Below are positions 2,761 through 22,300 of a stretch of DNA of 64,000 bases, in pieces; within the stretch, counting starts at the first letter, position 1, and each line of letters opens with the position of its first letter. The translations under genes were made by a program, and so were the position numbers. The notes under the pieces were generated by a model. The model did not search any database. It saw only the letters and a program-made list of their open reading frames with translations, and was not told where the DNA came from. Source of the DNA: Coleofasciculus sp. B1-GNL1-01 (GTDB lineage Bacteria > Cyanobacteriota > Cyanobacteriia > Cyanobacteriales > Coleofasciculaceae); assembly GCA_040220235.1 (NCBI GenBank), contig JAVJTO010000071.1; one strand, written 5' to 3'.

Positions 2761-5016
2761 TTAATCTTCGTCATCGTCATAAATGAAATCGGGCGGCGGT
2801 GGAATATCGGGAACGAGTTCAATTGTCATTCCTTGTTCAAACATGCAGGAATCTATATCCTCTTCGTCTAAGATTACCTCCCGATGCGCCCAAGCTAAAC
2901 CTTGATTGGGAAGTTTTATTTCTATCCAGCCGCCTTTGGTTTGTTTGCCTGTGATTGGGACTTGTTCTCTAGTTAAATAGGTAATCACATTATCGCGAAA
3001 TGATGCTGGGTCAGAACGAACATTTCCGGTAACAATCACTGAACAAGTGGCAGGTTCGGGCGATGGTTTAGGTTCAGGAGAGGGAGAAGGCGATGGGGAG
3101 GGACTGGAAGTAGCACCGTTGGGGGATTTTGTCGCTGTGGGAGAAGTAGTTGGTGATGATACAACGGTATCCGTTGCATCGGTTGACGGTTGTACGGCGG
3201 CACGATTAAATAAACTAATCAGTAGAGCTAATGTAGCTAAACCGCCACCAATTCCTGCCCAAAGGAGGAGTTTATTGGAGGATTTAGAAACGGCGGGTTC
3301 AGGATTTAAGAAATTGCTAAGATTTGATGATACTTGAACGCCAGAAGTCGGTTCGGTTTCCGGTTCGTCTGGCGTTTGCATATACCATTCGGGGATAGAA
3401 TTGGGTTTTAATGAGAGTCGATCAGGTTGATTGTTATTGGATGCCGTTGACTCTTGGGTTGGTTCAGGATTAATGGAGTCAAAGGTGGATGAGGGCGCGA
3501 TCGCACTCTCCTGTTGTGGCGATGGAACCTCTGGCGGTGTGGAGGCGTAGACGGGTGGTGCTGTGGGATCAAGGGGTTGGTTGGCTGGGACAGTATCTTC
3601 TAGTTGGGGTGATACTTCCATCGGTGTGGATGACGGGATAGGGGGTGCTGAGGAATCAAGGGGTTGGTTGGCTGAGACACTATCCTCGGCTTCAGGTGAC
3701 ACTTCCCCAGGTTTAGAGGCTGACACAGGGGGTGCTGTGGGTTCAACGGATTGAGTCGGTGGAACGTTATCCCCGGATTGGGGTAACATCTCTCTCGGTG
3801 TGGAGGCGTCGCTGGTTTCTTCTTGATCTCGTTGATCCCGAATGAGTGAAACAGAACGCCGACTGAGAGAGTCTCGAATGTCTGTTCCGCCGCGTCTTTC
3901 CATATCGGAATCACTGTCGAGATTCGGTTGGGACGCCAAGCGAGATTGCTTTTGGGATAGGATTATTTCTTCGGTGTCTTTAATATCTTGATCTCTCAAT
4001 CCTAAAGACTGTTGCAAATCTTTTAAGAGTTTACGAGACTTGGGATTAAGTGAATTATCGGCTCGGAAAACTTCCCGAAACGCTTGTTTATATCGCTGTA
4101 ATTTTTCCTGATACTCGCGATAGGGAGTTAACACTTGGGCTTCTATCGCCGCACAATCGGCTGGAGTGAGATGTAGACTTTGGGCTAATGTATCCAGAGC
4201 CGAACGACCCCCAACAGAAATTTCACCCCCTCTAATCCAGCGCTGTGCTTCTTTACGATACTTTAAGGTGAGACGATTTAGGGGGACTTGACTCAGGGCG
4301 ATCGCTTGATAGGGTTCGCTAGCATATAATCTAGGTTTTAAAGCGGGAGCAACGATTTTAAGCTGCTGAGAAACATAGTCATGAAGTTCCTTGACACAAA
4401 TCCAATCATCGTGATTGCGATCGGCGAGTCCTGTTGCGAGTCCTTCGATTAAGTAACGAGTGTAATCCGAGGGTTGAGAGGATTTGGATTGGTTAAAATA
4501 GGGAATGGAACTAAAACAGCTTAGAAACGCCCACTTTTCACCCGTCAGTTGTTGTTTTATCCCGCCTTCATTATAGTCGTTTGCGGTTATTTCCCAATCC
4601 AAAATATTGCTACAATAACCGTCGATAATCACAATATTCTGCGGACAGGGACTGTTGCTAAGTATATCCTGGATTAAACAAGCTGGAACAACGGTTGCCT
4701 TAACTAATTCTTTTTGCGAATGCTCATCGCTCATGCGAGTGGCAGTGATGCTAGTTCCTAAATATACAGTATCGTGATAATCTTGGATACATTGACCCGA
4801 AAAAAATAGCAACACTACATCTTCCTCGCCACGCTTACTCAACAGCGTTTCGAGAGTTTCCCGCATCACGGGAGGATTCGGATTGATCAGCGTTTCTATC
4901 TCGTCAAAAGAATACTGCAAAACACGTTGCATCGCTTCAACAGCGTTAACGGCTCCGGGTACGGGGTGAAAACCATAGCCGTACTCACTTACCCCAATCA
5001 GCAATGCTATTTTCAC
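2761..5016 (-). CDS. Degenerate caspase-like (peptidase C14) domain protein with Pro-rich linker, TM helix and C-terminal SH3-like domain
   Basis: KIALLIGVSEY start; FSGQC and IIDGYCS where SGHG and LDCC are expected; three ~29-aa Pro-rich repeats; TM LLLWAGIGGGLATLALLISLF; NVRSDP...GWIEI...AW SH3-like pattern. Confidence 0.75.
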   Translation of the reverse strand: MKIALLIGVSEYGYGFHPVPGAVNAVEAMQRVLQYSFDEIETLINPNPPVMRETLETLLSKRGEEDVVLLFFSGQCIQDYHDTVYLGTSITATRMSDEHSQKELVKATVVPACLIQDILSNSPCPQNIVIIDGYCSNILDWEITANDYNEGGIKQQLTGEKWAFLSCFSSIPYFNQSKSSQPSDYTRYLIEGLATGLADRNHDDWICVKELHDYVSQQLKIVAPALKPRLYASEPYQAIALSQVPLNRLTLKYRKEAQRWIRGGEISVGGRSALDTLAQSLHLTPADCAAIEAQVLTPYREYQEKLQRYKQAFREVFRADNSLNPKSRKLLKDLQQSLGLRDQDIKDTEEIILSQKQSRLASQPNLDSDSDMERRGGTDIRDSLSRRSVSLIRDQRDQEETSDASTPREMLPQSGDNVPPTQSVEPTAPPVSASKPGEVSPEAEDSVSANQPLDSSAPPIPSSTPMEVSPQLEDTVPANQPLDPTAPPVYASTPPEVPSPQQESAIAPSSTFDSINPEPTQESTASNNNQPDRLSLKPNSIPEWYMQTPDEPETEPTSGVQVSSNLSNFLNPEPAVSKSSNKLLLWAGIGGGLATLALLISLFNRAAVQPSTDATDTVVSSPTTSPTATKSPNGATSSPSPSPSPSPEPKPSPEPATCSVIVTGNVRSDPASFRDNVITYLTREQVPITGKQTKGGWIEIKLPNQGLAWAHREVILDEEDIDSCMFEQGMTIELVPDIPPPPDFIYDDDED

Positions 5017-5799: not shown

Positions 5800-7950
5800 C
5801 TAAGTATCTTGCTTAAGTACAACTAACGTAATATCGTCAAAAACCTTTTGTTTGCCAATAAATTGCCGCACATCATCAATAATCGCATCTTTAATGGCTT
5901 CGGCGGATTTATCCCAGTTTTGACAAATCACATCACACAATCGATCTAACCCGTATTGTTCATTCTCCATATTTTCAGCTTCAGGAATACCATCGGTGTA
6001 AAGGACAATGCTGTCACCGGGATTTAATTCAATTAACGCCCGATCAATAAAATCAGCAATTTCATCATCTAAGGCGATCGGAAATCCCAAATCCATGGTA
6101 TCAATTCGTTCAATAATTCCCCCAGCACGCACCACGATAGATTCTTCATGTTGACCACTGATACTAACTTTGCCATCGGTATAGTTGAGAATGGCTAAGG
6201 TCAAGTTGCGATCCGAATTCATCCGTTGCACATTTTTGTAAAGCGTGCGGTTGAGGGTATCCAGAAACTTAACGGGATCACGTTCCCGAATTTCATCGAG
6301 GGTGCGAACAACGGTTTGGGTCATCATCATTAAAATACCACTTTCTAACCCATGTCCGGTTACATCGCCAATGCCAATGGTGACGACATTATCCGTGCAG
6401 AGGATGTCATAGTAATCGCCGCCAACTTCATCAGCCGGTTCCATAAACCCAGCCAGATCTAATCCTTCAATGGCTTCTAATTCCTCAGACGTGGGCAGGA
6501 TCATATATTGCAGTTGACGGGCGACATCAAGTTCGGCACTCATCCGCAGGTTTTCGGCTTTGAGTTTTTCGTTGAGTTGACTAATTTCCTCATTCGCTTG
6601 GGCGAGTTCAGCGGTGCGTTCTTTAACTTTATCTTCTAAGTTATGGGCATAATCTTCTAATTTCTGATAGGAAATCATCAGATTTTGCCACAAAACCTGA
6701 CCGACGCTCAAGGTAGCCGCAACAACTACGGCTAATAAAGGCGTAAACACAGGAACTAACCAACCGTAGAGAAAAGCAAAATAGGAACTGGCAACAATAA
6801 TTCCTACCGCGATCAATAACCCACCAAGCGTTAGCCAGCGTCGGTGGATATAGAATGAGCCAAGGGTGGCACTGTATCCTGACCAAACAACAATCAGTAG
6901 CCAGTGTATGGGTTTCGTGGTTGCCCGTAACATCGGACGCCCTGATAGAGCGGCGCTGAGAATCTGACTGGTGATATTCGCATGGATGACCACACCGGGC
7001 ATTAAATCCGTGGAGACAGCTAGATTGCTATTATAAGGGGTGAGATAGTTATCATTAAGACTAGGCGCTTTTGCCCCAATCAAAACGATGCGATCGCGGA
7101 AGAAGTTTGCTGGGATGCGGTTCTCCAAGACATCGGTCATGGAAATATTCGGAAAGCGATCCAGTCCGCCGCGATAGTTCATCAGGATTTGATACCAACC
7201 CAAATCCGATTCTTTGTAGAATCCATCATTTTTACTCAGGGGAATAAAGGTGGCTTTTCCTAAACCGAAGATTTGTTTGTCAGGATTGATCGCTTCCAAT
7301 TCAATCCCTTGGTCGGCTAAATAGTCTAAAGCCAGTTTTACACTAAAGCCTTGCATTAAACCACTTTCAGCTTCACCGAGGACAAGAGCGCGGCGATTTT
7401 TGCCATCGTTATCCAGGAACAGATCGTTAGCCCCCATTTGATCTTTATCGGCTAATGTGGGTGGCGGGTCGATGGTATCTCCGGCAATTTTGGTAATTCC
7501 AATGAGGTTTGGGGTGGTTTTAAACACCTCAACTAGGTCTTCATATCCCGGTTCTACGGGTAAATCTCGATAAATATCTAACCCGATCACGTTGGGGTTT
7601 TGGGCATTAATAGTCCGGAGCAGTTTTGCCATGACTTGATCGGACATGGGCCACTGCACCACATAATCAATATCTTCTTCATCAATCGTGACGATAGCAA
7701 TTCGCTCATCAACGGGTTCTTGGGGACGCAGGAGAAAGAATTGATCTAAAATCAACCATTCTAAAACCCGAAAAATCCCCAAATAACTGCCAGCAATAAT
7801 GAAACCTGCCACACAAGGCGTAATCAGCAAAACCCCTTGCCAGCGTTGCAATAATGCCTGTAGAGACGTGTCAGGGTTCATCTTAATTGTTGACCCCTCA
7901 CCTTGTTCAATGGCTTGATTTTCCGTCTTGGTTAATGAGTCATCACTCAT
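5800..7950 (-). CDS. CHASE2 sensor + SpoIIE/PP2C-type phosphatase
   Basis: CHASE2 motifs (IVTIDEED, WP, IGLDIYRDLP, PGVVIHA), 3 TM helices, coiled coil, VGGDYYD, IGDVTGHG, LYTDG, DDIT. Confidence 0.93.
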   Translation of the reverse strand: MSDDSLTKTENQAIEQGEGSTIKMNPDTSLQALLQRWQGVLLITPCVAGFIIAGSYLGIFRVLEWLILDQFFLLRPQEPVDERIAIVTIDEEDIDYVVQWPMSDQVMAKLLRTINAQNPNVIGLDIYRDLPVEPGYEDLVEVFKTTPNLIGITKIAGDTIDPPPTLADKDQMGANDLFLDNDGKNRRALVLGEAESGLMQGFSVKLALDYLADQGIELEAINPDKQIFGLGKATFIPLSKNDGFYKESDLGWYQILMNYRGGLDRFPNISMTDVLENRIPANFFRDRIVLIGAKAPSLNDNYLTPYNSNLAVSTDLMPGVVIHANITSQILSAALSGRPMLRATTKPIHWLLIVVWSGYSATLGSFYIHRRWLTLGGLLIAVGIIVASSYFAFLYGWLVPVFTPLLAVVVAATLSVGQVLWQNLMISYQKLEDYAHNLEDKVKERTAELAQANEEISQLNEKLKAENLRMSAELDVARQLQYMILPTSEELEAIEGLDLAGFMEPADEVGGDYYDILCTDNVVTIGIGDVTGHGLESGILMMMTQTVVRTLDEIRERDPVKFLDTLNRTLYKNVQRMNSDRNLTLAILNYTDGKVSISGQHEESIVVRAGGIIERIDTMDLGFPIALDDEIADFIDRALIELNPGDSIVLYTDGIPEAENMENEQYGLDRLCDVICQNWDKSAEAIKDAIIDDVRQFIGKQKVFDDITLVVLKQDT

Positions 7951-8007
7951 GATATGTTCCCCCTGCTCCCAGACGCGCCATGGCGCGTCTCTACATTTCT
8001 CTGTCTT

Positions 8008-9357
8008 CTACTCAAAGGCAAAGGGTTGAGACGCGATCGCTTCCAGGTCAACTTGTTCTAATAAATCGTGCCATTCGGTACTATAGGTTTCATTCATCGG
8101 TTCAGATTGTTGAGCCTCAACTAAAACCTGCAACGTATCATACCAGATCCCTGCCTCGGCATATTTAGTTGCCAGCTTCACAGGAGAGTCCGCAAACTCT
8201 TGCTCATTGACTGTATTTTCAACCCGCTTCACCCATCCCGTCACCGCATAATTATCGGGTCGTAAAATTCCACCCGGTTCAATGGGGGCAAAATACCACA
8301 AATAATTCTTATCGATTTCCAATCCCGGTGTGTCTGGGGGTAGGGTAATCGCCATGACTCCACCTTGGGGAGGGACATTCAATATGGTGTGGTAATGAGA
8401 ATTCCCCGCTTCATCTTGGATACTAAAAAAGACCTTCCGTGCGCCAATAGGAGGTAAATAAACATAGATTGTGGGACGAGGTGAAACCGTGCGTCCATGT
8501 TTCGTCGGCGGAACTAATGCGGTAAGTGCAGGAATGTCACTGACCGGATTTTCTTCTAATGTTTCTACATCCACTGGGGTTGGGGGAACTGAATCTTCAC
8601 TGGGGAGAAATAGTTCAACATCACCTCGGATACCCCCACCAGTGCTGGTATAGGGGTTTTTCCCATCAGCCGGTAAGCTAAACTCCACATCTCCTCTAGT
8701 TCCACCCGCCACACCACTACGGGGTGCGGAACCACCAGGTAAGCTAAATTCCACATCTCCTCTAGTTCCCCCAGCCACACCACTACGGGGTGCAGAACCA
8801 CCCGGTAAAGCAAACTGCACATCTCCCCTGACGCCTCCAGCTACACCACTCTGAGGTGCAGCACCACCCGGTAAAGCAAACTGCACATCTCCTCTAGTTC
8901 CTCCAGCTACGCCACTCCGAGGTGCAGCACCGCCAGGTAAAGCAAACTGTACATCCCCTCTGACGCCTCCAGCCACACCACTACGGGGTGCGGAACCGCC
9001 AGGTAAAGCAAATTGCACATCTCCTCTGACGCCCCCACCAATACCACTACGGGGTGCAGAATCTTGGGGAAGTCCAAACTGCACATCCCCTCTGACACCC
9101 CCACCAACACCCGAACGAGGCGCAGAATCTTGGGGAAGACCAAACTGTACCTGACCTCGTACCCCCCCACCAACAGGGCTTTTCGGAACATTATCGTCGG
9201 GAAGACTGAAGTCTATACTGATCAGGTTATCGTTGATGGGAGGTTCCGACTCTAAGGGGACAAAACGTGCTAAAGCAGCATTAGCTGTTAATACGAAGAC
9301 TGTCCCCGTTACTGTAGCGGATAAGAGAGTTTGGCAGATTGCTGGAGTCATGGTCAA
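8008..9357 (-). CDS. DUF928 protein with signal peptide and expanded N-terminal repeat array
   Basis: Signal peptide ending ANAALA; C-terminal LTALVP...GRTVSPRPTIYVYLP, YLWYF, GWVKRV, YAEAGIWYDTL. Confidence 0.88.
   Translation of the reverse strand: MTMTPAICQTLLSATVTGTVFVLTANAALARFVPLESEPPINDNLISIDFSLPDDNVPKSPVGGGVRGQVQFGLPQDSAPRSGVGGGVRGDVQFGLPQDSAPRSGIGGGVRGDVQFALPGGSAPRSGVAGGVRGDVQFALPGGAAPRSGVAGGTRGDVQFALPGGAAPQSGVAGGVRGDVQFALPGGSAPRSGVAGGTRGDVEFSLPGGSAPRSGVAGGTRGDVEFSLPADGKNPYTSTGGGIRGDVELFLPSEDSVPPTPVDVETLEENPVSDIPALTALVPPTKHGRTVSPRPTIYVYLPPIGARKVFFSIQDEAGNSHYHTILNVPPQGGVMAITLPPDTPGLEIDKNYLWYFAPIEPGGILRPDNYAVTGWVKRVENTVNEQEFADSPVKLATKYAEAGIWYDTLQVLVEAQQSEPMNETYSTEWHDLLEQVDLEAIASQPFAFE
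8600..9220 (-). repeat. Nine tandem ~66-bp (22-aa) coding repeats plus a partial tenth
   Basis: Consensus DVQFALPGGSAPRSGVAGG[VT]RG read directly from the translation. Confidence 0.95.
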
Positions 9358-9379
9358 CTTTCCTTGAATGCTTAATAGC

Positions 9380-12052
9380 CTATAGCCAATTACCGATCAG
9401 AACGAACGATGCCCAAAAATAGGGATGTTTGTATAAGGGTTCTTCGAGAAGACTAAGCTGTGCTTGTCGCAATGCTTCAGCTTTGCTCACCTTCAGATCC
9501 GTTAGTTGGTGATAGAATTCCTGCATCATTTTTGAAGTGGATTCATCACTCACTGACCAGAGACTGGCGATTGTACTTTTTGCACCCGATCGCAGGGCAA
9601 ATCCTGCTAAACCTAATGTAGCTCGATTATCTCCGGCTGCGGTTTGACAGGCACTCATGACTAATAGTTCAATCGGTTGTAGTAGCCCCAGCCGCCGTTT
9701 TTGAAAGATTAGATCGAAGTCTTCTATGGAAATGCGATCGCTCCAGGTGAGCAGAAAGGTTTCCTCCGGATTAGAACTGAATTGACCGTGAGTCGCCAGG
9801 TGAACGATGGGGAAGGATTGGTTGTTAATCAGTTCTTTAAATGTGCCGAAGGTAAAGGTTTCATTAAATAGCACTTTAGAGTTGACTTGTTGCGACACTT
9901 GCGCTATCTCTTCATCAACGCCGGGTAAGGGACTAAACCCTTGACGCGCTTCGGTTAACCCAGCGGCTAATAAACGCAGTTCCTCTTGGGAGAGTCCTTG
10001 GGGAAACAGTTGTAATCCGGGGCTGAAGACAACCCGATACTTTTGCAGGATATACTGTTCTCCATCATAGAGTGCCGCCATGGGTAAGTTGCGGAGAAAG
10101 CCATCGGGGACAAATACCAGCGTCTGGATATCTTGGCTAGTCATCGCCGCTTCAGCGGGTTGGATTAACCAGGTATACACCTGTTGAGAGAGTTTTAACC
10201 GTTCGCTACTCGGATAGCCAGGAGACAGGGCGGAATACAGTTGTGTCAGCGTGGATTCAACCTCAGCTTGGGTGAGTTGAGTGGCGTAGTGGGTGAGGGG
10301 TTGATTGGGAATCGAGAGGATTACTTCCAAGCGATCGGGTAATATAATTGGATAAATTACCGCTGCTTGGGTATCAATTTCTTCTAAAGCAACCGGATTA
10401 GTATCTAAACAAGCATCTTGGAAAAAGTTATCCAGTTCGGCTAATTGCAACGCTTCCATCACATCACGGGCTTGTTGCAAATTGGCTTGATTATCCCCTG
10501 CTGTTAACAGTAAGCTAACAAGCTGGCGATAGAGGGGTTCAATCCCTTCTTTAAAGTCGAACTGAACATCGGCACTAATCGCCACTAAATCACTGCGTAG
10601 GGATTGGATATTATCAAAGGCAATTTTATAAGCGGCGAGGGCTTCGTTGGTTTTGCCTTGTTTTTGCAGGATTTCACCCAATTGTCCCCCCGCCCGTGCC
10701 GCGATATCGTCGGCGTTAATTTCTTGAGCGAGTTTTAGTGACTGTTGGGATAGGGTTTGACTATCGTTTAGTTTCCCATTCGCCTGATACAGTTTACCCA
10801 ATTGATACAGGGCATAAGCTTCGGCTCTAGGATCGTTAATTTGTCGGGCTTGGTTAACGGCTTTCGCCAAGAGTTTTGATGTATCCACTGCCAAGGAGTC
10901 TGACATCCCGGCTTCATCGTATTTCATCAAACTATCTGCCAGATTAATTTGGGCATAAATTGCCGGACGCGAGGCAGACAGTTGGTTCACTTTGGGGGTG
11001 ATAATGGGGATAAATTCTTGGGCGACATCCCAGCGTTGTAACTCGATTAACATTCGCAATTGATTCAGTTGCGCTTCTAGTTGAGTTAGGGGATCAGGGG
11101 TTAATTCGGCGGCTTGTTGATAGTACGTCCAAGCGACGGCATATTCTTGTAAATCTCGCGCTACATTGCCAATGCTAAATAGTGCCTCACTGGTATCTTG
11201 GGGTGAGTTTAACTGTTGACTAATTTGCCAACTGGCTTCTAACACGGCTTTCGACTGGCGCAGTTGACCCAGGGTTTGTAATGCCACACCTAAACTTCTC
11301 AATCCCTTGGCTTTCAGCAGACTATTGGGTTCCGTTTGTAATTCACTCACCAATTGTTCCAAGAGAGACTTGGCTCGTCGATATTTTCCCAAGGTTTGTA
11401 AGGCTTGGGCTTGGTTAATTTGGCTGATTAATTGTCCGGTTTTGTCGTCTGCCTGTTCATAAATGGAGGCGGCTTTTTTCCAGGTATCTAACGCGGTTTG
11501 GCTTTGTCCTTGCAGCAGGTGAATCGTGCCTTGAGTATTCAAGGCTTGGGCAAGGAGTAAGCGGGTATTTTTGTCAGTATCCGGTTGAGATTTTAACAGG
11601 TTTAAACTTTGTGCGATCGCGCTTTGGGCAGATTCCGTATTTCCTAATTCTTTATACGCCAACGCCAGGTAATTCAACGCCTGGGCTTGCTTGAGAATGA
11701 ACCCCTCAGCGGCAAAAGTATCTGCTGCGTCTTGCCAGACTCTTGCAGCTTGGTCAAATTGTCCAGCTTGATAATAAAGTTTCCCCTGTTCAACTAAATC
11801 TGATGGTTCAACCGTTTGGCTGTAGAGAGGTTCTATTGGGGGTTCTACTATTTCCGCCCGGTTCTCGACGATTTCCTCCGTCTGATTCCCCATACCCAAC
11901 GGAGGATAAGCTGCCGTTGCTGGCAACTTGGGTGATTGTAAAGATAGGGTTAGGAAAAAAGCACCCAGAATCAAAGCAATAAAAGAACGGGGGCGTTTCA
12001 GCCAACCCTTAAGTGTTTTGTTTACTTGAGAATAGGTTTTACTCATAGTCAT
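9380..12052 (-). CDS. TPR + CHAT (caspase-family) protease with signal peptide
   Basis: TPR helices; intact IVHLATHGQF and LLVMSACQTA catalytic motifs; HPYFWASFVLIGNWL terminus. Confidence 0.95.
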   Translation of the reverse strand: MTMSKTYSQVNKTLKGWLKRPRSFIALILGAFFLTLSLQSPKLPATAAYPPLGMGNQTEEIVENRAEIVEPPIEPLYSQTVEPSDLVEQGKLYYQAGQFDQAARVWQDAADTFAAEGFILKQAQALNYLALAYKELGNTESAQSAIAQSLNLLKSQPDTDKNTRLLLAQALNTQGTIHLLQGQSQTALDTWKKAASIYEQADDKTGQLISQINQAQALQTLGKYRRAKSLLEQLVSELQTEPNSLLKAKGLRSLGVALQTLGQLRQSKAVLEASWQISQQLNSPQDTSEALFSIGNVARDLQEYAVAWTYYQQAAELTPDPLTQLEAQLNQLRMLIELQRWDVAQEFIPIITPKVNQLSASRPAIYAQINLADSLMKYDEAGMSDSLAVDTSKLLAKAVNQARQINDPRAEAYALYQLGKLYQANGKLNDSQTLSQQSLKLAQEINADDIAARAGGQLGEILQKQGKTNEALAAYKIAFDNIQSLRSDLVAISADVQFDFKEGIEPLYRQLVSLLLTAGDNQANLQQARDVMEALQLAELDNFFQDACLDTNPVALEEIDTQAAVIYPIILPDRLEVILSIPNQPLTHYATQLTQAEVESTLTQLYSALSPGYPSSERLKLSQQVYTWLIQPAEAAMTSQDIQTLVFVPDGFLRNLPMAALYDGEQYILQKYRVVFSPGLQLFPQGLSQEELRLLAAGLTEARQGFSPLPGVDEEIAQVSQQVNSKVLFNETFTFGTFKELINNQSFPIVHLATHGQFSSNPEETFLLTWSDRISIEDFDLIFQKRRLGLLQPIELLVMSACQTAAGDNRATLGLAGFALRSGAKSTIASLWSVSDESTSKMMQEFYHQLTDLKVSKAEALRQAQLSLLEEPLYKHPYFWASFVLIGNWL

Positions 12053-12461
12053 TCATTTATGCATCTCTTAAATAATTCGTAGGGGCGCACCGACGTGCGC
12101 CCTTTGCCCTTTCCCCACCGACGTGCGCCCTATTCACCGACATATACCCAGATATTGCTCAAAATTTAAACTTCTCTAAATCCCCTTAAAAAGAAAGACT
12201 TTGAGAAAACTATTGTTTTTTTGCCTCCCTTTTCTGAAAATTATTGCTTCTTCCCCAGGAATTTTTGCTTCTTGTTCCCCCCTTTTAAAGGAGGGTTAGG
12301 GGGGATCTCTTACCCACCTAAAGCTTCTGATGCTAAATCCACCTTTGTCACCCCCTTGATACCTTAAGTCCTGTTGCCTGTTGCTTGTTGCCTTGTCCCC
12401 ACTATAAAGGAGGTAGTTGACCCGGATTGAGTATGATGCAATACCTCGATAAGGGCGCACG

Positions 12462-15400
12462 TCAGTGCGCCCCTACACAATTGGCGTATTGATTCGGTAA
12501 TGTCTCTTGAGGCACAGCCGCCACTAATTCAATCTCTCCTTGTTCATTTTTTACCCAACCCGTCGCTTCCACAAGATACCGCCGTTCAGAAGTTGATTCT
12601 ACCGGATTCGGAACAGGCTGTTTAGCTTGAGGCTGATTTTCCGGTGCAGTTGCGGCAAAATCGCGCACATCCGATAACAAGGTTTGACCGCGAATCGGTG
12701 CCGTAGGATCACTGGGGACTCCTCCTCGCCCAGTAATTGTAAACACATTCCCCTCAGCCGCCGCACAGGTTTTCACCACTTGGTTACTGGTATCAGCAAG
12801 TTGATCCGGTAGTTTGATTAATCCTGATTCAGGATCAATCTCTGGACTCGTTAGCGAGAATGTACCATCAATACCCAACTCAGAACTAACAGTAATGTCA
12901 TTAGTCATGACTTCTCGTGGGTTATCTAAGTCCCGAAACTCAATAAAAAAGAGATCATTTGTTGAAATACCAATATTACCTCCATCACCCTCGAAGGCAT
13001 TAGCGGTAATATCGCTATTTTGTCCAGGAACGGCAACAACAAATGGGGTAGCGATTTGAATATTTCCTCCATTCCCGAACCCACTATCTATCCCGGCTGT
13101 CGCTGAAATTAAACTCCCTCCGCGCAAGATTATTATATTGTCTAAGGATAGGGCAATATTCCCCCCATCATCACTGGCGGCTTCTGCCGAAATCCGACCA
13201 TTATCTAGAATCAATTGACCGCCTTGAAGCTGAATACTTCCCCCTGTTCCTGTACCTTCGCTATCTACGGAAATTGCTCCACCATCGCGAATTTGAACCA
13301 AGTTTGGATCAATGAAGATACTGCCACTATTTCCTGTAGACTCTGGGGTTGTACTGGAAAAGATACCTGTATTTTCACCCATAATGGTAATCACGTTGTC
13401 CACATTGACAACTGTGTTCCCGGCATTACCACTTCCGGCGGTATCGGTGCTGATTTGCGCTCCATCTTTCAAGATGAGAGCGTTTCCAGTAATCTCAACT
13501 AAACCGCCATTTCCTGATGAACCTTCGGCAGCATTAGAAAACACACCTGTATCTTCACCAAAAAGTTGAATTGAGTTAGCGTTGACGAATATTTTGCCCG
13601 CATCTTGGCTACTTTCAGTCAACGCTTCTAACTGTGCGCCGTTCCTAACAGATAGGGATGCGGCATTAATCGTTAATGTGCCGCCACCTCCAGTTGCACC
13701 CGCCAAGGTTCCGACATACACACCACTAGGGTCAAAGTCCCCACCTTTATCGCCATCAAATATAGCTGCCCCAGTTACATCAATATTAATATTTCCGGCA
13801 TTACTCCCTGCTTCTGATTGACCACTGGTACTGGCACTAATAAATCCACTATCCGTTACCGAAAGCTGATTTGTATTAATGGTAATGTCGTTCCCTTGAC
13901 CCTTTGATGTGGGTGCAACCTCACTTAGAATACCACTAGGGATTGGGAAGTTTGGACCCAGTACAGCACCCTTAATCTCAATTTCATCAGCATTAACATC
14001 AATTTGACCCGCATTTCCTGATGCGACAGTCGTCGTTCTAATTTGTCCCCCATCTTCCAGCAAAAGTTTACCCGTCTCGACTGAAACCATCCCCGCATTG
14101 CCATTCCCTCGACGAATGCCCATTGGAAATAAGGCATCAGGCAAGGCAGGAAAATCGGATGCATCAGCAAAAAACGGACCGTTAGGAATATTCAAAAAAG
14201 GCAGTACCGCACTCACAATCCCACTAGGGTTGTCGCCTGATGTTCCAATTAATTTAATTGATTCCGTGGCAATAACACTAACATTTCCAGCGTTTCCTAC
14301 ACCTGCTGTGGAAGAAAAAATCTGGCTGCCATCTGTAGCCATCAGTGTGTTTGTGGTTACTACCACCTCTCCAGCATTGCCTCCCCTGACAAAAGAGGTT
14401 TCACTGGAAATTGTACTACTATTTTCTAGGACTATGGAATCAGCCTCGACGCTGACAGCACCAGCGTTTCCTGTACCTGATGTTGCTGTGTTGATTCTAC
14501 TCCCTTGGCGCAGGCTCAAGGAACTGGTGGAAATATTGATAGCACCACCTTGTTCGCTACCGACGTAAAGAGTTTCAACTTCATTGTTATTTGTTAATTG
14601 AATGGTAGGAGCTGTGAGACTGATATCACCGCCAAGCCCATTAGCTTGAGTAAAACTCACACTTTCAATCTTACTTGAGTCATTAAAAAGAATTGACGTA
14701 CCACTATTCATCGTTACATCACCGCCAACTAATCCCACGGATGCAATTTCACTGTTAGCCGCAATAGAAAGATCTCCACGAGCATCAATGGCAATGTCTC
14801 CCCCTAGCTCAAACATTGGTAATTGGGGTTCCAATTTATCTGCGGCTGTAATAAGACTTTCGACTTGAATACTGCCATTGGATAAAGCTAAGTTGGGTTG
14901 ATATTGATTCGTCAGTAGGACTAAACCACCAGATTGGGCAATTTCAATCTTACCCACGCTAATATTAGAACCACTGAGAGAAGGCGTTTCAAATGTAACC
15001 GAACCTGTAGGAATATCCGTTGGTGTTGGAATACCTGGAACTCCCGTAAATGGCGCTTGAGTCCAGTCAATTCCGGCTCTCACATCTAAGGTTGCTTGAC
15101 TATCTCCATTGACAGTAACCGAAGTGCCATCAGACAATGTAACATTACTCAGGGCGCTATAGGGTGTATTTGTTCCCGGAATCAGGGTGTCATTGTTACT
15201 GTTAATTGTGCTAGCCGTTGGTCCCGTATTATTAATGGTAACTGTGCCTAACTCAACACTTCCTCCTGCCAAGATATGTAGCGACGCACCCTCATAATTA
15301 CCGAGTTTCACATCACCTGCAGCTAGGACAATGGGATCATCGGCGGCAAAACTATTCCCTGGAGTCCCGTCGAGTTGCTCAACCGAAAATTGACCATTAG

Positions 15401-16265
15401 TGGCATAATGACCATCAAGTTGAATGTCATTAGCTGAACGCAGAGTCATGTTGCCGTTGGAACTCAAGCCACTATTTGCATGGTTTAAGATAGATAGGGT
15501 TAAGCCTTGATTTCCTTGGGCGACAAATTCACCCCCAGCCATGGCGATAAATGGATTAGTCGCCGTATCTTCTATGGTTAATAGTTCTGAGGCTTTGAGT
15601 TTCAGGTCGCTCCCAGCTGTTAATTGACCCCCTTCTAGGTCAATCGTTTGACCGATGAATGATAAATCTTGTCCGGCTGATAAATTTCCTGTACTGGTAA
15701 TGTCTCCAGTCGGGGGTAACCATTGAGAAATACCTAAAGGAGTCGTAACGGTGAGCAAGGGGGGCGAATCAGGATTCGTAGCGCTGAATGTATACCCATT
15801 GTCGAATACGACACCACCCGATGTGCTAGCCGCAAAAGAGCCAGCAACATCCAGACGAGCATTCGGACCAAAGATAATCCCATTGGGATTGAGTAAATAC
15901 AGATTGGCGTCACCCAAAACGCCTAATGTCCCAAAAATATCTGAGTGATTGTTTCCGGTGACTCGACTGAAAATATTGGCAATATCACTAGGATTGGCAA
16001 AGTAAACCTGTTGACCTTCATTGACATTAAACTGATCAAAGCTATGAAATAAGGTTGATCCTCGGCTTGCACCACCATTGATTAGATCGATAATCTGGTT
16101 ATTAAGCTCAACATTGGGCGTGACAATAGAACTCTCTGAACCCAATGTGTTATCTGGCACAATTGATTGTGAAAAACTAGGCAGAGGATCACCAAAAATA
16201 TAACCAAATGCGCCGCTGATTAGGGCAACTTTACAAATACTGAACCAATCACGCTTGTGAAGCAT
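12462..16265 (-). CDS. Filamentous haemagglutinin N-terminal (TPS) domain exoprotein
   Basis: LFHSFDQFNV, NIFSRVTG, LLNPNGIIFG motifs; GNAG beta-helix repeats; FTITGRGG and EATGW C-terminal motifs. Confidence 0.95.
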   Translation of the reverse strand: MLHKRDWFSICKVALISGAFGYIFGDPLPSFSQSIVPDNTLGSESSIVTPNVELNNQIIDLINGGASRGSTLFHSFDQFNVNEGQQVYFANPSDIANIFSRVTGNNHSDIFGTLGVLGDANLYLLNPNGIIFGPNARLDVAGSFAASTSGGVVFDNGYTFSATNPDSPPLLTVTTPLGISQWLPPTGDITSTGNLSAGQDLSFIGQTIDLEGGQLTAGSDLKLKASELLTIEDTATNPFIAMAGGEFVAQGNQGLTLSILNHANSGLSSNGNMTLRSANDIQLDGHYATNGQFSVEQLDGTPGNSFAADDPIVLAAGDVKLGNYEGASLHILAGGSVELGTVTINNTGPTASTINSNNDTLIPGTNTPYSALSNVTLSDGTSVTVNGDSQATLDVRAGIDWTQAPFTGVPGIPTPTDIPTGSVTFETPSLSGSNISVGKIEIAQSGGLVLLTNQYQPNLALSNGSIQVESLITAADKLEPQLPMFELGGDIAIDARGDLSIAANSEIASVGLVGGDVTMNSGTSILFNDSSKIESVSFTQANGLGGDISLTAPTIQLTNNNEVETLYVGSEQGGAINISTSSLSLRQGSRINTATSGTGNAGAVSVEADSIVLENSSTISSETSFVRGGNAGEVVVTTNTLMATDGSQIFSSTAGVGNAGNVSVIATESIKLIGTSGDNPSGIVSAVLPFLNIPNGPFFADASDFPALPDALFPMGIRRGNGNAGMVSVETGKLLLEDGGQIRTTTVASGNAGQIDVNADEIEIKGAVLGPNFPIPSGILSEVAPTSKGQGNDITINTNQLSVTDSGFISASTSGQSEAGSNAGNINIDVTGAAIFDGDKGGDFDPSGVYVGTLAGATGGGGTLTINAASLSVRNGAQLEALTESSQDAGKIFVNANSIQLFGEDTGVFSNAAEGSSGNGGLVEITGNALILKDGAQISTDTAGSGNAGNTVVNVDNVITIMGENTGIFSSTTPESTGNSGSIFIDPNLVQIRDGGAISVDSEGTGTGGSIQLQGGQLILDNGRISAEAASDDGGNIALSLDNIIILRGGSLISATAGIDSGFGNGGNIQIATPFVVAVPGQNSDITANAFEGDGGNIGISTNDLFFIEFRDLDNPREVMTNDITVSSELGIDGTFSLTSPEIDPESGLIKLPDQLADTSNQVVKTCAAAEGNVFTITGRGGVPSDPTAPIRGQTLLSDVRDFAATAPENQPQAKQPVPNPVESTSERRYLVEATGWVKNEQGEIELVAAVPQETLPNQYANCVGAH

Positions 16266-16825: not shown

Positions 16826-19231
16826 CTACAGTTTATATAGCGTTTCATTTGAGTTGTGAACCCCACCGTTGCCACCTTCAATGATCTCTGACAACGAACT
16901 TCCCTTGATTGTATCTACCCCATTGCCACCTTTTAGTGTGACAGTGGCTTTAGCAGGAGCAATGACATTAAGTTGGGATAAGTCGATATCTCCCTGACCA
17001 TTTTGGGTATCAAAGGTCATCGTTGTCCCCAAAATCTCTAAGTCTGTCGCCAGATAGCCTTTGTTTTTTAAAGCATTAAGGTCTAATGTCGTCAGTCGGG
17101 TGGTAGTGACAGATGAGTCAATCACAATCTTTAAACTGCTTAAGGAATTAGTTGCTGGAGCAAGAGTATTGAGTGCGTCTTGCAAATCATTGTAGTTGAT
17201 AATCTCTGTTCCTGGCGTTAAATTTTCATTCGCCAAAGACACGTCATCTGATTGGGCTAAAATAATCACGTTATCAGCGAAATCTGGAGTGACTTGAGCC
17301 TCAGCAATTGCCATCCGTTCAGTTTTGTTGGTGTTAGGATTTATTAGCTCAAGATCGCCCGAATTGAAAATATCAGCACCTCCACGACTATCTTCACTTA
17401 ATGCACTCGAATAAACCATCTCCATTAATTGCTGATTAAAATCAGCAATTTGTTGTGCCGCCGTTGGATCAGTGAATGTATCCAGTGCCAGAAAAGCATT
17501 CCACTCATTGGGAATTAGACTGATCAGCCCTTTATTATCAAAGTCAAAATGAAGACCTGCTGCACCCTTTTGTCCGCTAGGAAGAAAATCGGATGTGTTA
17601 TAAGCCTGTCCACTGGCTATTAGTGAATCACAATTGTCATAAATGATCTGACCCGTTACAGTGCTGATACAGTAATCGAAATCTAGAATGGTTACGTATT
17701 CGGGATTGAGCGGATCATCTGTTTTGGGATCAAACAGGTCAGAATAAATACGTACTGGCTCTCCATTACTGAGCGTCCCGATGTACCGCATAAACGGAAT
17801 TGTGCCATAGTCAGCACTGGTGTTATTCGATGTGCTTGATTCAAAAACATTAGCACCGTTGGCTGCGACACTAACTTGACCCCCAACGATATTTTGCTTG
17901 ACGTTTACTATCGATGAACCCGCTACTTTGTCAATTTTATCGACAGGAAGCCAAAATTTTCCTTTAACTTGCGTGTTGTTGTATTCCGATAATTTAGCAT
18001 TTTCCCCTAATGAAGCGTAGATATTGTTGGTTTGAACATACTCATTACTGACAATTGTTTTTACTGTCAATTGTGCGGATTCACCAGAGGAGAGGGAAGG
18101 AATTACCACTTCCACAGAGTCTGGATTGCCATCACCCGTTAAGCTTTGACCATTGGCAGCAATATAGGGGTCAATCGTACCATCCTGATCCGGATCGTAT
18201 GTATCCAAATTAATTGCGCCAGCAGGAATAAATAATTCGGAGACGTTTAACTGTAAGTCAGCACTATCGGTAATCAAAACAGACTCAGCCAGCGCTGAAC
18301 CCTTGTTAGTGACGGTCAATGTATAGGAAAATTCTTCATCGGGAATTGCAATGTTTTGACCTTCTGATGTTGGGATGAATGTCTTGACAACTTCCAAGTC
18401 AATTTCTTGCCGATTGCCGAAGTCATTATCGATTCCAGGCATATCAGCAACAGTAAATTCCTCAAATCCAGCATCTGAACCATTTATTTTATCCGCACTG
18501 CCTAACTTGGCAAAGAGATAAACATAAGTGCTATCATCGGCTCCCGCAAAAGCACGTTCAGGAATATAAAATAAGGCGTCACCGGAACCACTTCCCGATG
18601 TCAACGCTGCATCAAACAGCACCGAGTTGCCTAAATCAAAAACAGCTTGTCCGCCATTTAAGGCTCCCGTTAGCGTCTGATTGCTGGGATTGTAACCACT
18701 CAGCGTAGGAGAATCGCCCAAAAAGAGTCTAAACTCTTCTAGCACGATCTCAGAAGCCCTATTCCTTTCATTCAAATCCAGGCGGATTTCGCGGAACGTT
18801 TCTCCCGCTTTCGTCACCTGTGGCAGTTCAGACAGTTGCAGCGATCGCGCTGATGTGACATCGGGTTGACTCACCGCTGCATCTGTGTTATAGCCTTCCT
18901 CTTCCGGAGTAGCTTTCAGTTTAAGAAATGAGTCATTAGTACCAGAACCCGACGCTAAATCAGCACGAACAATATAAGCACCATTGACAAATCCTGACTG
19001 ATTAGCGGTTAAATCCAGAACTGAGTCTGTGAAAATATGAGGTGTCGCCTCTGTCCCCGTTTGTAAATTCGTAGCCGTTAACAAAAATGTTGCACTCGCC
19101 GAATGATCAGGATGAGCAAGCCAAAAGGATAGAGTCAGAAAAAAAGCACCTAGAAGCGGCACAAGAGAAGAACGGGGGTGCTTTAGCCAACCTTTAAGAG
19201 TTTTGTTGATTTGAGAATATATTGTACTCAT
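16826..19231 (-). CDS. Chimeric DUF11-containing surface protein (CHAT-derived signal peptide + adhesin paralog body, truncated before RTX repeats)
   Basis: First 35 aa match the N-terminus of the CHAT protein; remainder is colinear with 19367..24163 minus the SdrD repeats; ends at the first GGNG. Confidence 0.75.
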   Translation of the reverse strand: MSTIYSQINKTLKGWLKHPRSSLVPLLGAFFLTLSFWLAHPDHSASATFLLTATNLQTGTEATPHIFTDSVLDLTANQSGFVNGAYIVRADLASGSGTNDSFLKLKATPEEEGYNTDAAVSQPDVTSARSLQLSELPQVTKAGETFREIRLDLNERNRASEIVLEEFRLFLGDSPTLSGYNPSNQTLTGALNGGQAVFDLGNSVLFDAALTSGSGSGDALFYIPERAFAGADDSTYVYLFAKLGSADKINGSDAGFEEFTVADMPGIDNDFGNRQEIDLEVVKTFIPTSEGQNIAIPDEEFSYTLTVTNKGSALAESVLITDSADLQLNVSELFIPAGAINLDTYDPDQDGTIDPYIAANGQSLTGDGNPDSVEVVIPSLSSGESAQLTVKTIVSNEYVQTNNIYASLGENAKLSEYNNTQVKGKFWLPVDKIDKVAGSSIVNVKQNIVGGQVSVAANGANVFESSTSNNTSADYGTIPFMRYIGTLSNGEPVRIYSDLFDPKTDDPLNPEYVTILDFDYCISTVTGQIIYDNCDSLIASGQAYNTSDFLPSGQKGAAGLHFDFDNKGLISLIPNEWNAFLALDTFTDPTAAQQIADFNQQLMEMVYSSALSEDSRGGADIFNSGDLELINPNTNKTERMAIAEAQVTPDFADNVIILAQSDDVSLANENLTPGTEIINYNDLQDALNTLAPATNSLSSLKIVIDSSVTTTRLTTLDLNALKNKGYLATDLEILGTTMTFDTQNGQGDIDLSQLNVIAPAKATVTLKGGNGVDTIKGSSLSEIIEGGNGGVHNSNETLYKL

Positions 19232-19366: not shown

Positions 19367-22300
19367 TTAAATATACGAGAAACTGGTCGTAAAAGCAAGG
19401 TCTGCGGTATTAACCCCTTCTACCTGCATGATGTCTTCTCCATTCAAACTGATGATACTATCAACACCTTGTTGAGTCAGAACCAGATCATTGAGCGCTA
19501 TACCTAAGAGTCCAATTTGATCAGAACCCACATCATAGCCGCGCACAATATCTAACCCGGCGTTTTCTTCAAGTACATAAATGTCACTAGCGCCGAAATC
19601 GGGAAGGACAAGTTGTATAAGTGGATTGTAGTATGACCCGACAAGAAGATCAGCACCCAAGCCACCACGCAGGGTATCTGCACCCAAGCCACCCGATAGA
19701 ATATCATCACCACCATCACCGCGTATTAAATCATTCCCCCAATTACCAAACAACTGATCATCCCCTAAACCACCGATTAATAGATCATCACCGCCTTTAC
19801 CTTTGATGATTTCTGAGAAAGAACTACCCTCTATCGTATCGGCTCCATTGCGACCTAGAAGTTCCACATTAGCATTCACAGGAGCCGTTACCGTAATCGA
19901 AGATAAGTCTAGATTTACCTGACTATTTTGGGAAGCAAAGCTCATGGTAGAACCCAAAATTTCTAGGTCTGTCACAAGATACCCTTTGTCCTGCAATGCA
20001 TTGAGATCTAATGTCTCCAGCCTGGTTGTGGTGACGGGTGAGTCAATCACAATCTTTAAACTGCTTAAGGAATTTGCTGCTGGAGATAGAGTATCAAGTG
20101 CCGCTTGCAAATCATTTTGAGCAATGATCTGTGTTCCTGGAGTTAAGTTTTCATCCGCAAAATATACGCCGTCCGTTTTGACTAAAATAATCACGTTATC
20201 GGCAAAATCTGGCGTGACTTGGGCATCAGTCACGGCAATCTGTTCAGTTTCGTTAGTGTTAGGATTTGTCAGCTGAAGCGCCCCATCCGTAAAAATATCC
20301 GCACCAGTATGACCGGTTGCCAGTAATTGATTATTAAAATCAATAATTTGCTGGGCAGCCGTCGGGTCAGTAGACGTATCTAGTGCTAAAAATGCATTCC
20401 ACTCATCGGGAATTTGGGCGATTAAAGCTTTATTATCCCATTCAAAATAAAAAGCCGCGCTACCCTCTGTTCCGTCAGGAAGGAAAGCCGAGTTGTTATA
20501 AGCCTGTCCACTGGCTATTAATGAGGCACAGTTTTCTGTAATGATTTGACCCGTCGTTGTGCTGATACAGTAATCCAAATTTAGAACAGTCGTGAAACCT
20601 GGATCGAGCGGATCATCAGTCTCTGGATCAAACAGCTCAGAATAAAGCCGGAATTGCTCCCCATTTCCTAGTGTTGCCGTATATTGAACATAGGGGATCG
20701 TGCCATAATCAACGCTGTTATTATTCGAGGTGTTAGTGTCAAACGCATTATAACTACTAAATGCGGCTACACTTACTTCACTCCCAACGACATTCTTTTG
20801 TACGGCTACCAAGGGTGAGCCAGCCGTTTTTTCAAGCTTATTAACTGGGAGCCAAATTGTACCTTTAACTTGACCATTATTGTATTCGGATAGTTCTGAA
20901 TTTTCTCCTAATGAACCATAAAAATTGTTAATTTGAACATAGTCGCTACTCACGGTTGTATTGACTATCAATTGTACGGATTCCCCCGACAAGAGTGTGG
21001 GAATGACCACTTCAACCGAGTCCGGATTGCCATCGCCACTCAAGCTTTGACCATTGGCGGCAATATAGGAGTCAATCATGCCGTCCTGATTAGGATCGTA
21101 TGTATCTAAATCAATCGCACTAACGGGAAGGATTAGTTCAGAGACGTTTAATTGCAAGTCTCCATTATCAGTGATCAAGACAGATTCAGCCGTCGCTGAA
21201 CCATTGTTGGTGACGGTCAATGTATAGGAAAATTCTTCATCGGGAATCGCAATATTTTCTCCTTCTAATGTAGAGATAAATGCCTTTTCGATTTCTAAAT
21301 CAATTTCTTGTCGATTGCCAAAATCAATGTCTGTTGCATTTGTCCCACTTTCAACGGTGATTGGTGCTGGATTTGTTGTTTTCTGCACCCAACCCGTTTT
21401 TTGCTCTTCCCGGATGGTATAGCTTCCTACAGTTAAATCCGTAAAGCTGTAATTACCACTTCCATCCGTAACGGTACTGGTTTCTCCCGCATCTAAACTG
21501 CCGTTATCATTGGCATCAATAAAGATAGTCCAGCCAGCTAATCCGGTTTCACCTGCATCTTTAACTCCATCGCCATCAATGTCTTCAAATTTCTGTCCAC
21601 TGATACTACCGAGTTGGAAGTTGCCAAAGTTAACTCCTGTAACTGTAGTACCACTACTGGTAATGTTAATCGCGCTGGGATTAGATGTAGTTTGTTCCCA
21701 ACCCGTTTTTTGCTCTTCCCGGATGGTATAGTCTCCAGCCGTTAAATCGGTAAAGCTGTAATTACCATTGGCATCTGTATTCGTACTGGTTTCACCAGTA
21801 TCTAAACTACCGTTATTATTGGCGTCAATAAAGATAGTCCAGCCATCTAATCCGGCTTCACCTGTATCTTTAACTCCATCACCATCAGTGTCTTCAAACT
21901 TCTGTCCACTGATGCTACCGAGTTGGAAGTTGCCAAAGTTAACTCCTGTAACTGTAGTACCACTACTGGTAATGTTAATCGCGCTGGGATTAGTTGTAGT
22001 TTGTTGCCAACCTGCTTGTTGAACTTCGCGAATGGTATAGGTTTCAACAGTTAAACCCGTAAAGCTGTAGTCACCATTGGAATCTGTGGTGGTACTGGTT
22101 TCACCTGCATCGAGAACACCGTCATTATCGCTATCAATAAAGATAGTCCAGCCAGCTAATCCGGCTTCACCTGCATCTTTAACTCCATCGCCATCAATGT
22201 CTTCAAATTTCTGTCCACTGATGCTACCAAGTTGGAAGTTACCGAAGTCAACCCCTGTGGTGTCTGTACCACTGGTAATGTTAATGTCGCTGGGATTCGA

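Follow-up and report, generated by a model that had tools for sequence, protein, structure and literature searches.

Gene organization of the locus

The window analysed here, a 64,000-nucleotide stretch of contig JAVJTO010000071.1 (assembly GCA_040220235.1) from Coleofasciculus sp. B1-GNL1-01, contains four genes that may together form an envelope peptide-signalling cassette. All four lie on the minus strand, as the first-pass annotation of this DNA had described and as the list of open reading frames (ORFs) and the Pfam matches confirmed. The most upstream gene (12462..16265) encodes a 1267-aa exoprotein resembling TpsA and filamentous haemagglutinin, the sense in which 'FHA' is used here, not forkhead (Pfam TPS domain, E = 1e-40; TIGR01901). 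It is followed by the gene for a TPR-CHAT protease of clan CD that is predicted to be exported (9380..12052; 890 aa, CHAT at residues 620-888, Pfam E = 5e-63), by that for a DUF928 precursor consisting of a signal peptide, a repeat array and an MtxA-like core (8008..9351; 447 aa from the ATG at 9351, or 449 aa over 8008-9357 from an alternative TTG start) and by that for a 716-aa membrane receptor (5800..7950) with a CHASE2 domain (residues 49-359), a coiled coil and a SpoIIE/PP2C phosphatase (residues 521-713). The intergenic gaps, from TpsA to the CHASE2 end, measure 409, 22-28 and 57 bases. The closest named relatives of the cassette are Coleofasciculus records, at 87-95% identity.

The protease and the DUF928 protein begin with hydrophobic segments, at residues 21-41 (mean hydropathy 1.99) and 5-21 (mean hydropathy 1.65), and the signal peptides previously assigned to both were recovered from hydropathy and an AxA-like site only. 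The CHASE2 domain is flanked by N-terminal and C-terminal membrane helices, and the PP2C fold and its metal-binding Asp motifs are intact (Z 26.2 to SiaA-PP2C, 6k4e), in agreement with the earlier description of an extracytoplasmic CHASE2 sensor coupled to SpoIIE. Two fold searches of the receptor returned matches filled by its PP2C domain, and its score with the SiaA equivalog model was 71.6 bits, against an NCBIfam cut-off of 700.

A repeated motif in the DUF928 protein

Nine units of 22-23 aa with the pattern F-x-L-P..P..GG[VTI]R occupy 8626..9222 on the minus strand, where Tandem Repeats Finder reported a 66-base period; we consider the unit a candidate CHASE2 ligand. Their GG[VTI]RG ends fall at residues 65, 87, 109, 131, 153, 175, 197, 219 and 242. 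The first-pass annotation had proposed nine 22-aa units, releasing about eight copies of GDVQFALPGGSAPRSGVAGGxR. The nine ends are present, and their spacing (22 aa seven times and 23 aa once, at the last) gives eight R-to-R peptides, but the string itself is exact in only two of the eight and the rest are variants. Rather than one fixed sequence, the functional core is F-x-x-P..P..GGxR. The nine ends are not due to chance: among the stop-to-stop frames of at least 200 aa in this genome, GG[VTI]RG occurs nine times in this frame and once each in seven others. The array is predicted to be disordered (pLDDT 37-57 over the modelled part), and a pN/pS of 0.31 between units 2-8 of this gene points to purifying selection on the units. 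We infer that the DUF928 protein is a secreted precursor with a repeated peptide, its export being predicted from hydropathy.

The DUF928 family (PF06051) matches this protein at 159.2 bits (cut-off 26; residues 275-446) and has 30 matches in this genome. Most of them carry one F-x-P-P..P..GG[ST]R copy with a Cys within a few residues after it. The window gene is the only multi-copy member; with nine units and no Cys after its signal peptide, it does not represent the common form. We represented the family by the best 150 of 3528 matches, taken as 50%-identity representatives, and dropped 9 incomplete ones. The remaining 141 comprised 80 single-copy proteins, 47 multi-copy proteins and 14 without a unit by a strict pattern, several of which show variants of the motif when read. 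A Cys pair is found in 72 of the 80 single-copy and 7 of the 47 multi-copy representatives. On a quick tree the multi-copy state changes 12-14 times, at least five of these changes being forced by supported branches, which makes a single origin of the state unlikely. Loss of the Cys pair as a correlate of the multi-copy state was also considered: the raw counts (40/47 versus 8/80) suggested it strongly, but independent pairs, of which the same quick tree offered only five on supported branches, gave no significant result.

The F, P, G, G and R positions are kept across families. Among the near homologues listed, a query-biased set of 120, 119 have at least two units with a spacing of 22-23. 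An orthologue is present in six of eight same-genus genomes, with 7-13 units in the five that lack assembly gaps there, and a three-unit profile matches 39 of 251 genomes of the class. These comparisons show the array as a tandem amplification of F-x-x-P..P..GGxR, a motif present once in most DUF928 proteins, and not as a feature special to this protein; the multi-copy proteins form a widespread, mostly Cys-less subfamily. Counting copies across DUF928 homologues had been proposed in the first-pass annotation, and the motif proved to be conserved; the lack of conservation named there as a refutation did not show. A unit profile, run against 85,916 frames of this genome for stand-alone peptide precursors, gave no convincing match outside DUF928 genes, and an Atlas search returned only DUF928 clusters.

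These data bear on whether the array might be a flexible linker enlarged by neutral slippage, with no role of its own. The predicted disorder and the range of 7-13 copies within the genus would fit such an origin. The pN/pS between units, the retention of F, P, G, G and R across families and through the 12-14 state changes, and the CHASE2-unit complex model described below all argue the other way, and we regard neutral expansion as very improbable.

Two further arrangements of DUF928 sequences were noted. At locus L113 (9252-9806; G023:C66), a 184-aa ORF encodes, besides a segment resembling a signal peptide, a single intact unit and four degenerate ones without the Arg; it has no DUF928 core and lies directly before a CHASE2-SpoIIE gene, with CHAT not nearby. 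In 61 genomes we found no counterpart of like size, only DUF928 repeat regions and gapped matches, and this ORF is therefore possibly a decayed gene. On contig C50 of the present genome (21935-25708) four DUF928 genes stand in tandem, with no CHASE2 gene on the contig and the nearest CHAT gene about 24 kb away; their products could possibly be ligands acting in trans.

Conservation of the gene neighbourhood

Within 5 kb of the 30 DUF928 genes of this genome we found CHAT at 19, CHASE2 at 17 and TPS at 14, and 18 of the 26 CHASE2 genes have DUF928 within 10 kb. The order FHA-CHAT-DUF928 recurs in all 21 loci found with the protein, and CHASE2 is present in 20 of them. Of the best 30 loci found with the repeat profile alone, one of which is the present locus, 27 have CHAT within 1.5 kb and 22 have CHASE2. 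The corresponding numbers are 13 and 12 for the remaining 29 DUF928 loci here and 8 and 11 for 14 single-copy loci of relatives; the loci are kin and the sets overlap, so these counts overstate independence. Of 89 DUF928 matches on contigs of at least 4 kb, 44 share a contig size with a CHAT or CHASE2 match (control mean 0.5 for all 120), which agrees indirectly with linkage. The output of the CHASE2 receptor varies between loci and may be a phosphatase, a hybrid kinase or a cyclase; because the output domains swap, the shared part is the envelope module. One Nostoc assembly contains three cassette copies (L101, L102 and L103) with equal ORF lengths on different contigs, reflecting either duplication or assembly redundancy.

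Predicted binding of the repeat unit to CHASE2

We modelled the CHASE2 domain (residues 62-345) together with a 35-residue piece of the array (8626-8730), a check that the first-pass annotation had suggested. The complex model placed one unit on CHASE2 with a score of 0.74, whereas the best of three controls reached 0.01. It thereby passed a mark attained by 116 of 157 solved pairs and 2 of 215 mismatched ones, counts that apply only roughly here because we used our own alignments. Runs shared at least 80% of contacts, and the pLDDT of the partner was at least 57. The piece comprised the last 35 repeat residues and ended at the Arg, where we had cut it. Its interface consists of residues 13, 15-20 and 23-35, amounting to one whole unit, and the half unit at residues 1-12 is absent from it. 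In the model, the Phe of the unit sits among CHASE2 residues 190-204, 218-235 and 253. The interface also takes in CHASE2 residues 125-128, 175-179, 298-302 and 319-323, which would be the site of the GGGIR end, the individual pairs not being listed by the model. The predicted pocket includes D125, R128, D176, D300 and H323. A profile search of the Protein Data Bank (PDB) found no CHASE2 chain, which makes recall of a solved complex less likely.

Pocket conservation was assessed in 22 of the 25 other CHASE2 paralogues of this genome, three being too short. R128 and D300 are present in all 22, D125 in 21, and position 176 is D or N in all 22; the site of the Phe varies. With its two Asp residues and its Arg, the pocket could accommodate the guanidinium and carboxylate groups of a C-terminal Arg. 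In eight non-cyanobacterial CHASE2 proteins, hand-picked from 54 plasmid records, D125 and D300 are present in all eight and R128 in one, and R128 could simply mark the cyanobacterial clade. Five of the eight genes upstream of these receptors encode an xVRGT motif, and the three tested were FecR-domain proteins. These xVRGT genes (loci L144, L146, L147, L148 and L151) adjoin proteobacterial CHASE2 genes, and the motif resembles the GGVRG junction. The ligand of CHASE2 is described as unknown in the accessible part of PMC10581220. Our model supports binding of the unit to CHASE2, the binding itself being predicted, and we consider it likely that the unit is a CHASE2 ligand, whether cut or uncut.

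The CHAT protease and possible cleavage after Arg

The CHAT domain matched its Pfam model at 213.6 bits (cut-off 24). The catalytic dyad reported in the first-pass annotation is intact: His755 (9788-9790, minus strand) and Cys802 (9647-9649) lie in HLATHG and MSACQ motifs and are invariant in 94 of 94 aligned relatives. The protein does not belong with Csx29, the type III-E TPR-CHAT protein, as it scored 24.6 bits against an NCBIfam cut-off of 300 and has TpsA, DUF928 and CHASE2 as neighbours. Searches of the PDB with the single CHAT sequence gave no match, and a profile of near relatives gave no CHAT among the best 60 matches listed; a profile of paralogues matched Csx29-type CHATs and separase. 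E715 is invariant in 21 of 21 sequences and D836 in 94 of 94, and both are missing from the Csx29-type alignment; they are candidate residues of an acidic S1 pocket for a P1 Arg. By our own mapping, E715 stands at the start of helix 1, like Asp163 of gingipain (PMC4626109).

A precedent for cleavage after Arg comes from HetF, whose CHAT domain, according to the accessible text of PMC9457339, cuts PatU3 at R117|S118; substitution of R117 with Ala, Asp or His abolishes cleavage. In multi-copy DUF928 proteins the residue after the Arg of GGxR is Gly at 439 of 461 internal positions and Gly, Thr or Ser at 109 of 119 last positions, and is never Pro. This precedent, the P1' pattern and the CHAT genes beside 27 of the 30 repeat-profile loci make cleavage plausible, despite a second Arg in about half of the units, and by analogy the CHAT protease may cut after the Arg of GGxR.

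Several observations weigh against a cassette in which such cleavage releases a ligand for CHASE2. The second Arg, present in 232 of 461 units (PR|S in this protein), could be cut by a loose Arg protease; one single-copy DUF928 paralogue has R|P; D836 maps, in our reading, near but not clearly onto Asp2070, the Arg-binding residue of separase; and CHAT is missing from the 5 kb around 11 of the 30 DUF928 loci. In the receptor, the whole interface is no more conserved (mean 0.51) than the rest of the CHASE2 domain (0.55), and six CHASE2 paralogues whose 10-kb surroundings lack DUF928 also keep R128, which might thus follow the phylum and not the ligand. Because we cut the modelled peptide at the Arg ourselves, the model is blind to cut versus uncut forms, and partners of Arg35 are absent from the listed contact pairs. 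The tail of TpsA, considered below as a trigger, has its Arg replaced in 4 of 19 copies.

The unit might instead act as an uncut ligand, a multivalent arm that stays tethered and retains receptors or gathers them into clusters, while CHAT destroys the ligand, as an off-switch or by de-repression, or cuts another protein such as TpsA, much as LapG reportedly acts on CdrA. The CHASE2-unit model fits this arrangement equally. Several loci have DUF928 next to CHASE2 without an exported CHAT, in single-copy proteins the motif would be anchored to the core by the Cys pair (72/80), folded-domain proteins carry xVRGT beside five of the eight non-cyanobacterial receptors, and the TpsA tail usually holds GRGG. 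Against it, the units run head to tail without a linker and the core often follows directly after the last, CHAT is enriched beside multi-copy genes, and a C-terminal Arg that is free would match R128 and the two Asp residues beside it. On this evidence we regard an uncut ligand as possible but rather unlikely.

A tail motif in TpsA

A C-terminal motif of TpsA, C..F.ITGRGG.P (12657..12875, minus strand, by a tail profile), is a candidate docking or activation element for the TPR-CHAT protease. In this genome it occurs in 19 of 22 stand-alone TpsA proteins and in none of 19 TpsA-CHAT fusions; 12 of the 19 positives formed the training set of the profile, and six short fragments were set aside. 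All 17 stand-alone TpsA proteins with a TPR-CHAT gene within 7 kb have the motif. At locus L069 (12929-15514; G035) a TpsA tail motif is fused to the N terminus of a TPR-CHAT protein; the gene order there is DUF928-CHASE2 kinase-CHAT, and no TpsA gene was seen within the 20 kb examined. This pattern of occurrence fits the tail as a docking or activating element, and TpsA as the trigger. The tail was also considered as an Arg cleavage site, an idea set aside because of the Arg replacements mentioned above. The four genes and contig C71 contain a TPS domain but no TpsB gene; eight ShlB-family (TpsB) matches all lie on other contigs of the genome, and TpsA is probably exported in trans. The single-ORF TpsA-CHAT fusions account for 19 of the 47 TPS matches of the genome, are 1054-2954 aa long and mostly lack a nearby DUF928 gene.

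Fold of the DUF928 core

The core (8020..8535, minus strand) was modelled confidently (pLDDT mostly above 90) as an Ig/FN3-like sandwich with a helical part and without Cys. In a VIA search of 48,161 chains, its best structural match was MtxA (4z29; Z 11.2, rmsd 3.7, 147 residues aligned), with the runner-up at Z 7.9; Foldseek placed MtxA at rank 5, with the highest TM-score among the matches listed. Identity in the structural alignments is 10-13%, and the DUF928 profile (A1) had no match of note in the PDB, leaving homology to MtxA unsupported by sequence. The model thus assigns to the core the Ig-like plus TPR-like C-terminal fold of MtxA.

This similarity raises the prospect that the motif does no more than serve CHAT as a substrate or pseudo-substrate, and that cutting unmasks the core as the real CHASE2 partner, with the repeats as a timer or protease sink. 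The gene for MtxA precedes a CHASE2 cyclase gene, according to the accessible part of PMC4439547, and nearly all repeat proteins retain the core. However, the peptide alone scored on CHASE2 in the complex model, and the coreless repeat-only ORF at L113 immediately precedes a CHASE2-SpoIIE gene, although no conservation of this ORF was found. We consider this explanation improbable.

Proposed mechanism and relation to known systems

Weighing these data, we see an evenly balanced case for an envelope peptide-signalling cassette in which CHAT releases a peptide ligand for CHASE2. The DUF928 protein would be exported with the receptor ligand, the unit of about 22 residues, at its N terminus. The co-exported TPR-CHAT protease would cut after the Arg of GGxR, leaving peptides with a free C-terminal Arg; the Phe of each unit would enter a variable side pocket of CHASE2 and the GGxR end the conserved pocket, as modelled. 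One peptide would come from an ordinary DUF928 protein, but from this subfamily the first unit and as many as eight R-to-R copies, and copy number may in this way tune the gain of the signal. From the gene fusion patterns, the TpsA tail may dock on the TPR-CHAT protease and gate it depending on whether the surface filament is exported or in contact. CHASE2 occupancy would then alter the activity of the cytoplasmic PP2C phosphatase. The idea put forward in the first-pass annotation thus finds partial support, which is strongest at the ligand step and weakest at cleavage and triggering.

Four described systems share features with the cassette; the papers on them were accessible in part. The MtxA/CHASE2 cyclase pair of magnetotactic bacteria (PDB 4Z29; PMC4439547) has the same exported Ig-like plus helical fold beside CHASE2, but at about 10% identity, and the accessible text mentions no CHAT, TpsA, repeat array or ligand role. 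HetF-PatU3 of Anabaena PCC 7120 (PMC9457339) likewise involves a cyanobacterial CHAT protein with TPRs, a strict P1 Arg and a small P1' residue. HetF, however, has a membrane segment between its CHAT domain and periplasmic TPRs and removes an inhibitor, whereas here the whole TPR-CHAT protein appears to be exported and the proposed product is a ligand. In Sinorhizobium meliloti, CyaD1, CyaD2 and CyaK with NsrA (PMC13001267) are CHASE2 receptors that answer a protein-type signal via an envelope component, but the signal is a plant protein acting through an outer-membrane barrel, the output is cAMP, and the accessible text gives no direct CHASE2 ligand. Proteobacterial LysM-FecR plus CHASE2 kinase operons (PMC5192318) place an exported partner directly before CHASE2; the xVRGT of these partners resembles GGVRG and their CHASE2 domains keep D125 and D300, but the partner is a FecR domain, R128 is mostly absent, and the likeness is one of motif. 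FecR and FoxR self-cleave at Gly-Thr, as stated in the accessible part of PMC9249621. That of PMC5587647 notes that CHASE2 and DUF928 are neighbours in one Nostoc and that sll1891 responds to acid stress, that of PMC8195603 describes cytoplasmic EACC2-caspase-CHASE2 fusions, a different arrangement, and that of bioRxiv 2023.06.23.546230 gives no cleavage site.

The cassette is real, conserved and, apparently, undescribed in print. On predicted and comparative evidence, it fits none of the described system families compared. A literature search that reached few subscription papers found no description of the cassette or the motif; work on haemagglutinin-CHAT operons in Nostoc may exist, and the search did not find it. 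Repeated peptides freed at basic sites are familiar from yeast alpha-factor and Kex2, from plant PROPEP1 and metacaspase, and from cyanobactin PatE, and the products of alpha-factor and PROPEP1 are read by a receptor. The present cassette differs from these in its Gram-negative envelope setting, its retained folded C-terminal core and its CHASE2 receptor.

A broader reading, which we hold tentatively and with less than even confidence, extends to filamentous cyanobacteria with TpsA, a caspase-like convertase, a DUF928 propeptide and CHASE2, and to the 30 DUF928 and 26 CHASE2 matches of this genome. In it, CHASE2 would be a receptor for Arg-ended peptides, serving dozens of parallel channels in which the constant GGxR end would fit a shared pocket, the variable Phe end would be the address and copy number would set the gain. 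The amplified units may then be true bacterial polyprotein prohormones. In proteobacteria, FecR-domain partners that have cleaved themselves may present an analogous VRG end to CHASE2. This sensor is widespread in bacteria, and because the locus names a candidate 22-residue ligand open to synthesis, a pocket (D125/R128/D300) and a candidate converting enzyme, the question of its ligand becomes directly testable. If release by CHAT is true, the Gram-negative envelope contains a caspase-like convertase that processes a multi-copy peptide precursor, such systems are numerous in multicellular cyanobacteria, and the whole works like eukaryotic prohormone signalling built from unrelated parts.

Surroundings of the cassette

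Eight RNA runs shared only 0.12-0.15 of sequence words with the locus; three of them, examined as contigs, covered genes and spacers evenly, a pattern that DNA in the library would produce as well, and these runs do not bear on expression. The spacers at 7951-8007 and 12053-12461 contain short dispersed repeats with about 300 and 110 BLAST hits genome-wide. Upstream, at 19367-24163 (minus strand), lies a gene for a 1598-aa surface protein with an SdrD-B repeat, DUF11 and an RTX repeat, a relative of which also stands upstream of the cassette in loci L064 and L071. Between this gene and the cassette, a chimeric ORF at 16826-19231 (minus strand) has a body that is a shortened copy of this upstream adhesin, and over its first 49 aa it shares 61% identity with the CHAT N terminus; DNA at 19125-19287 matches that at 11940-12103. 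It looks like a rearranged duplicate, as judged from these matches. On the other side, at 2761-5016 (minus strand), a caspase-domain protein of the EACC1-associated type scored below cut-off; on reading, its usual His/Cys positions look degenerate, and its gene contains Pro-rich 87-base repeats at 3557-3737.

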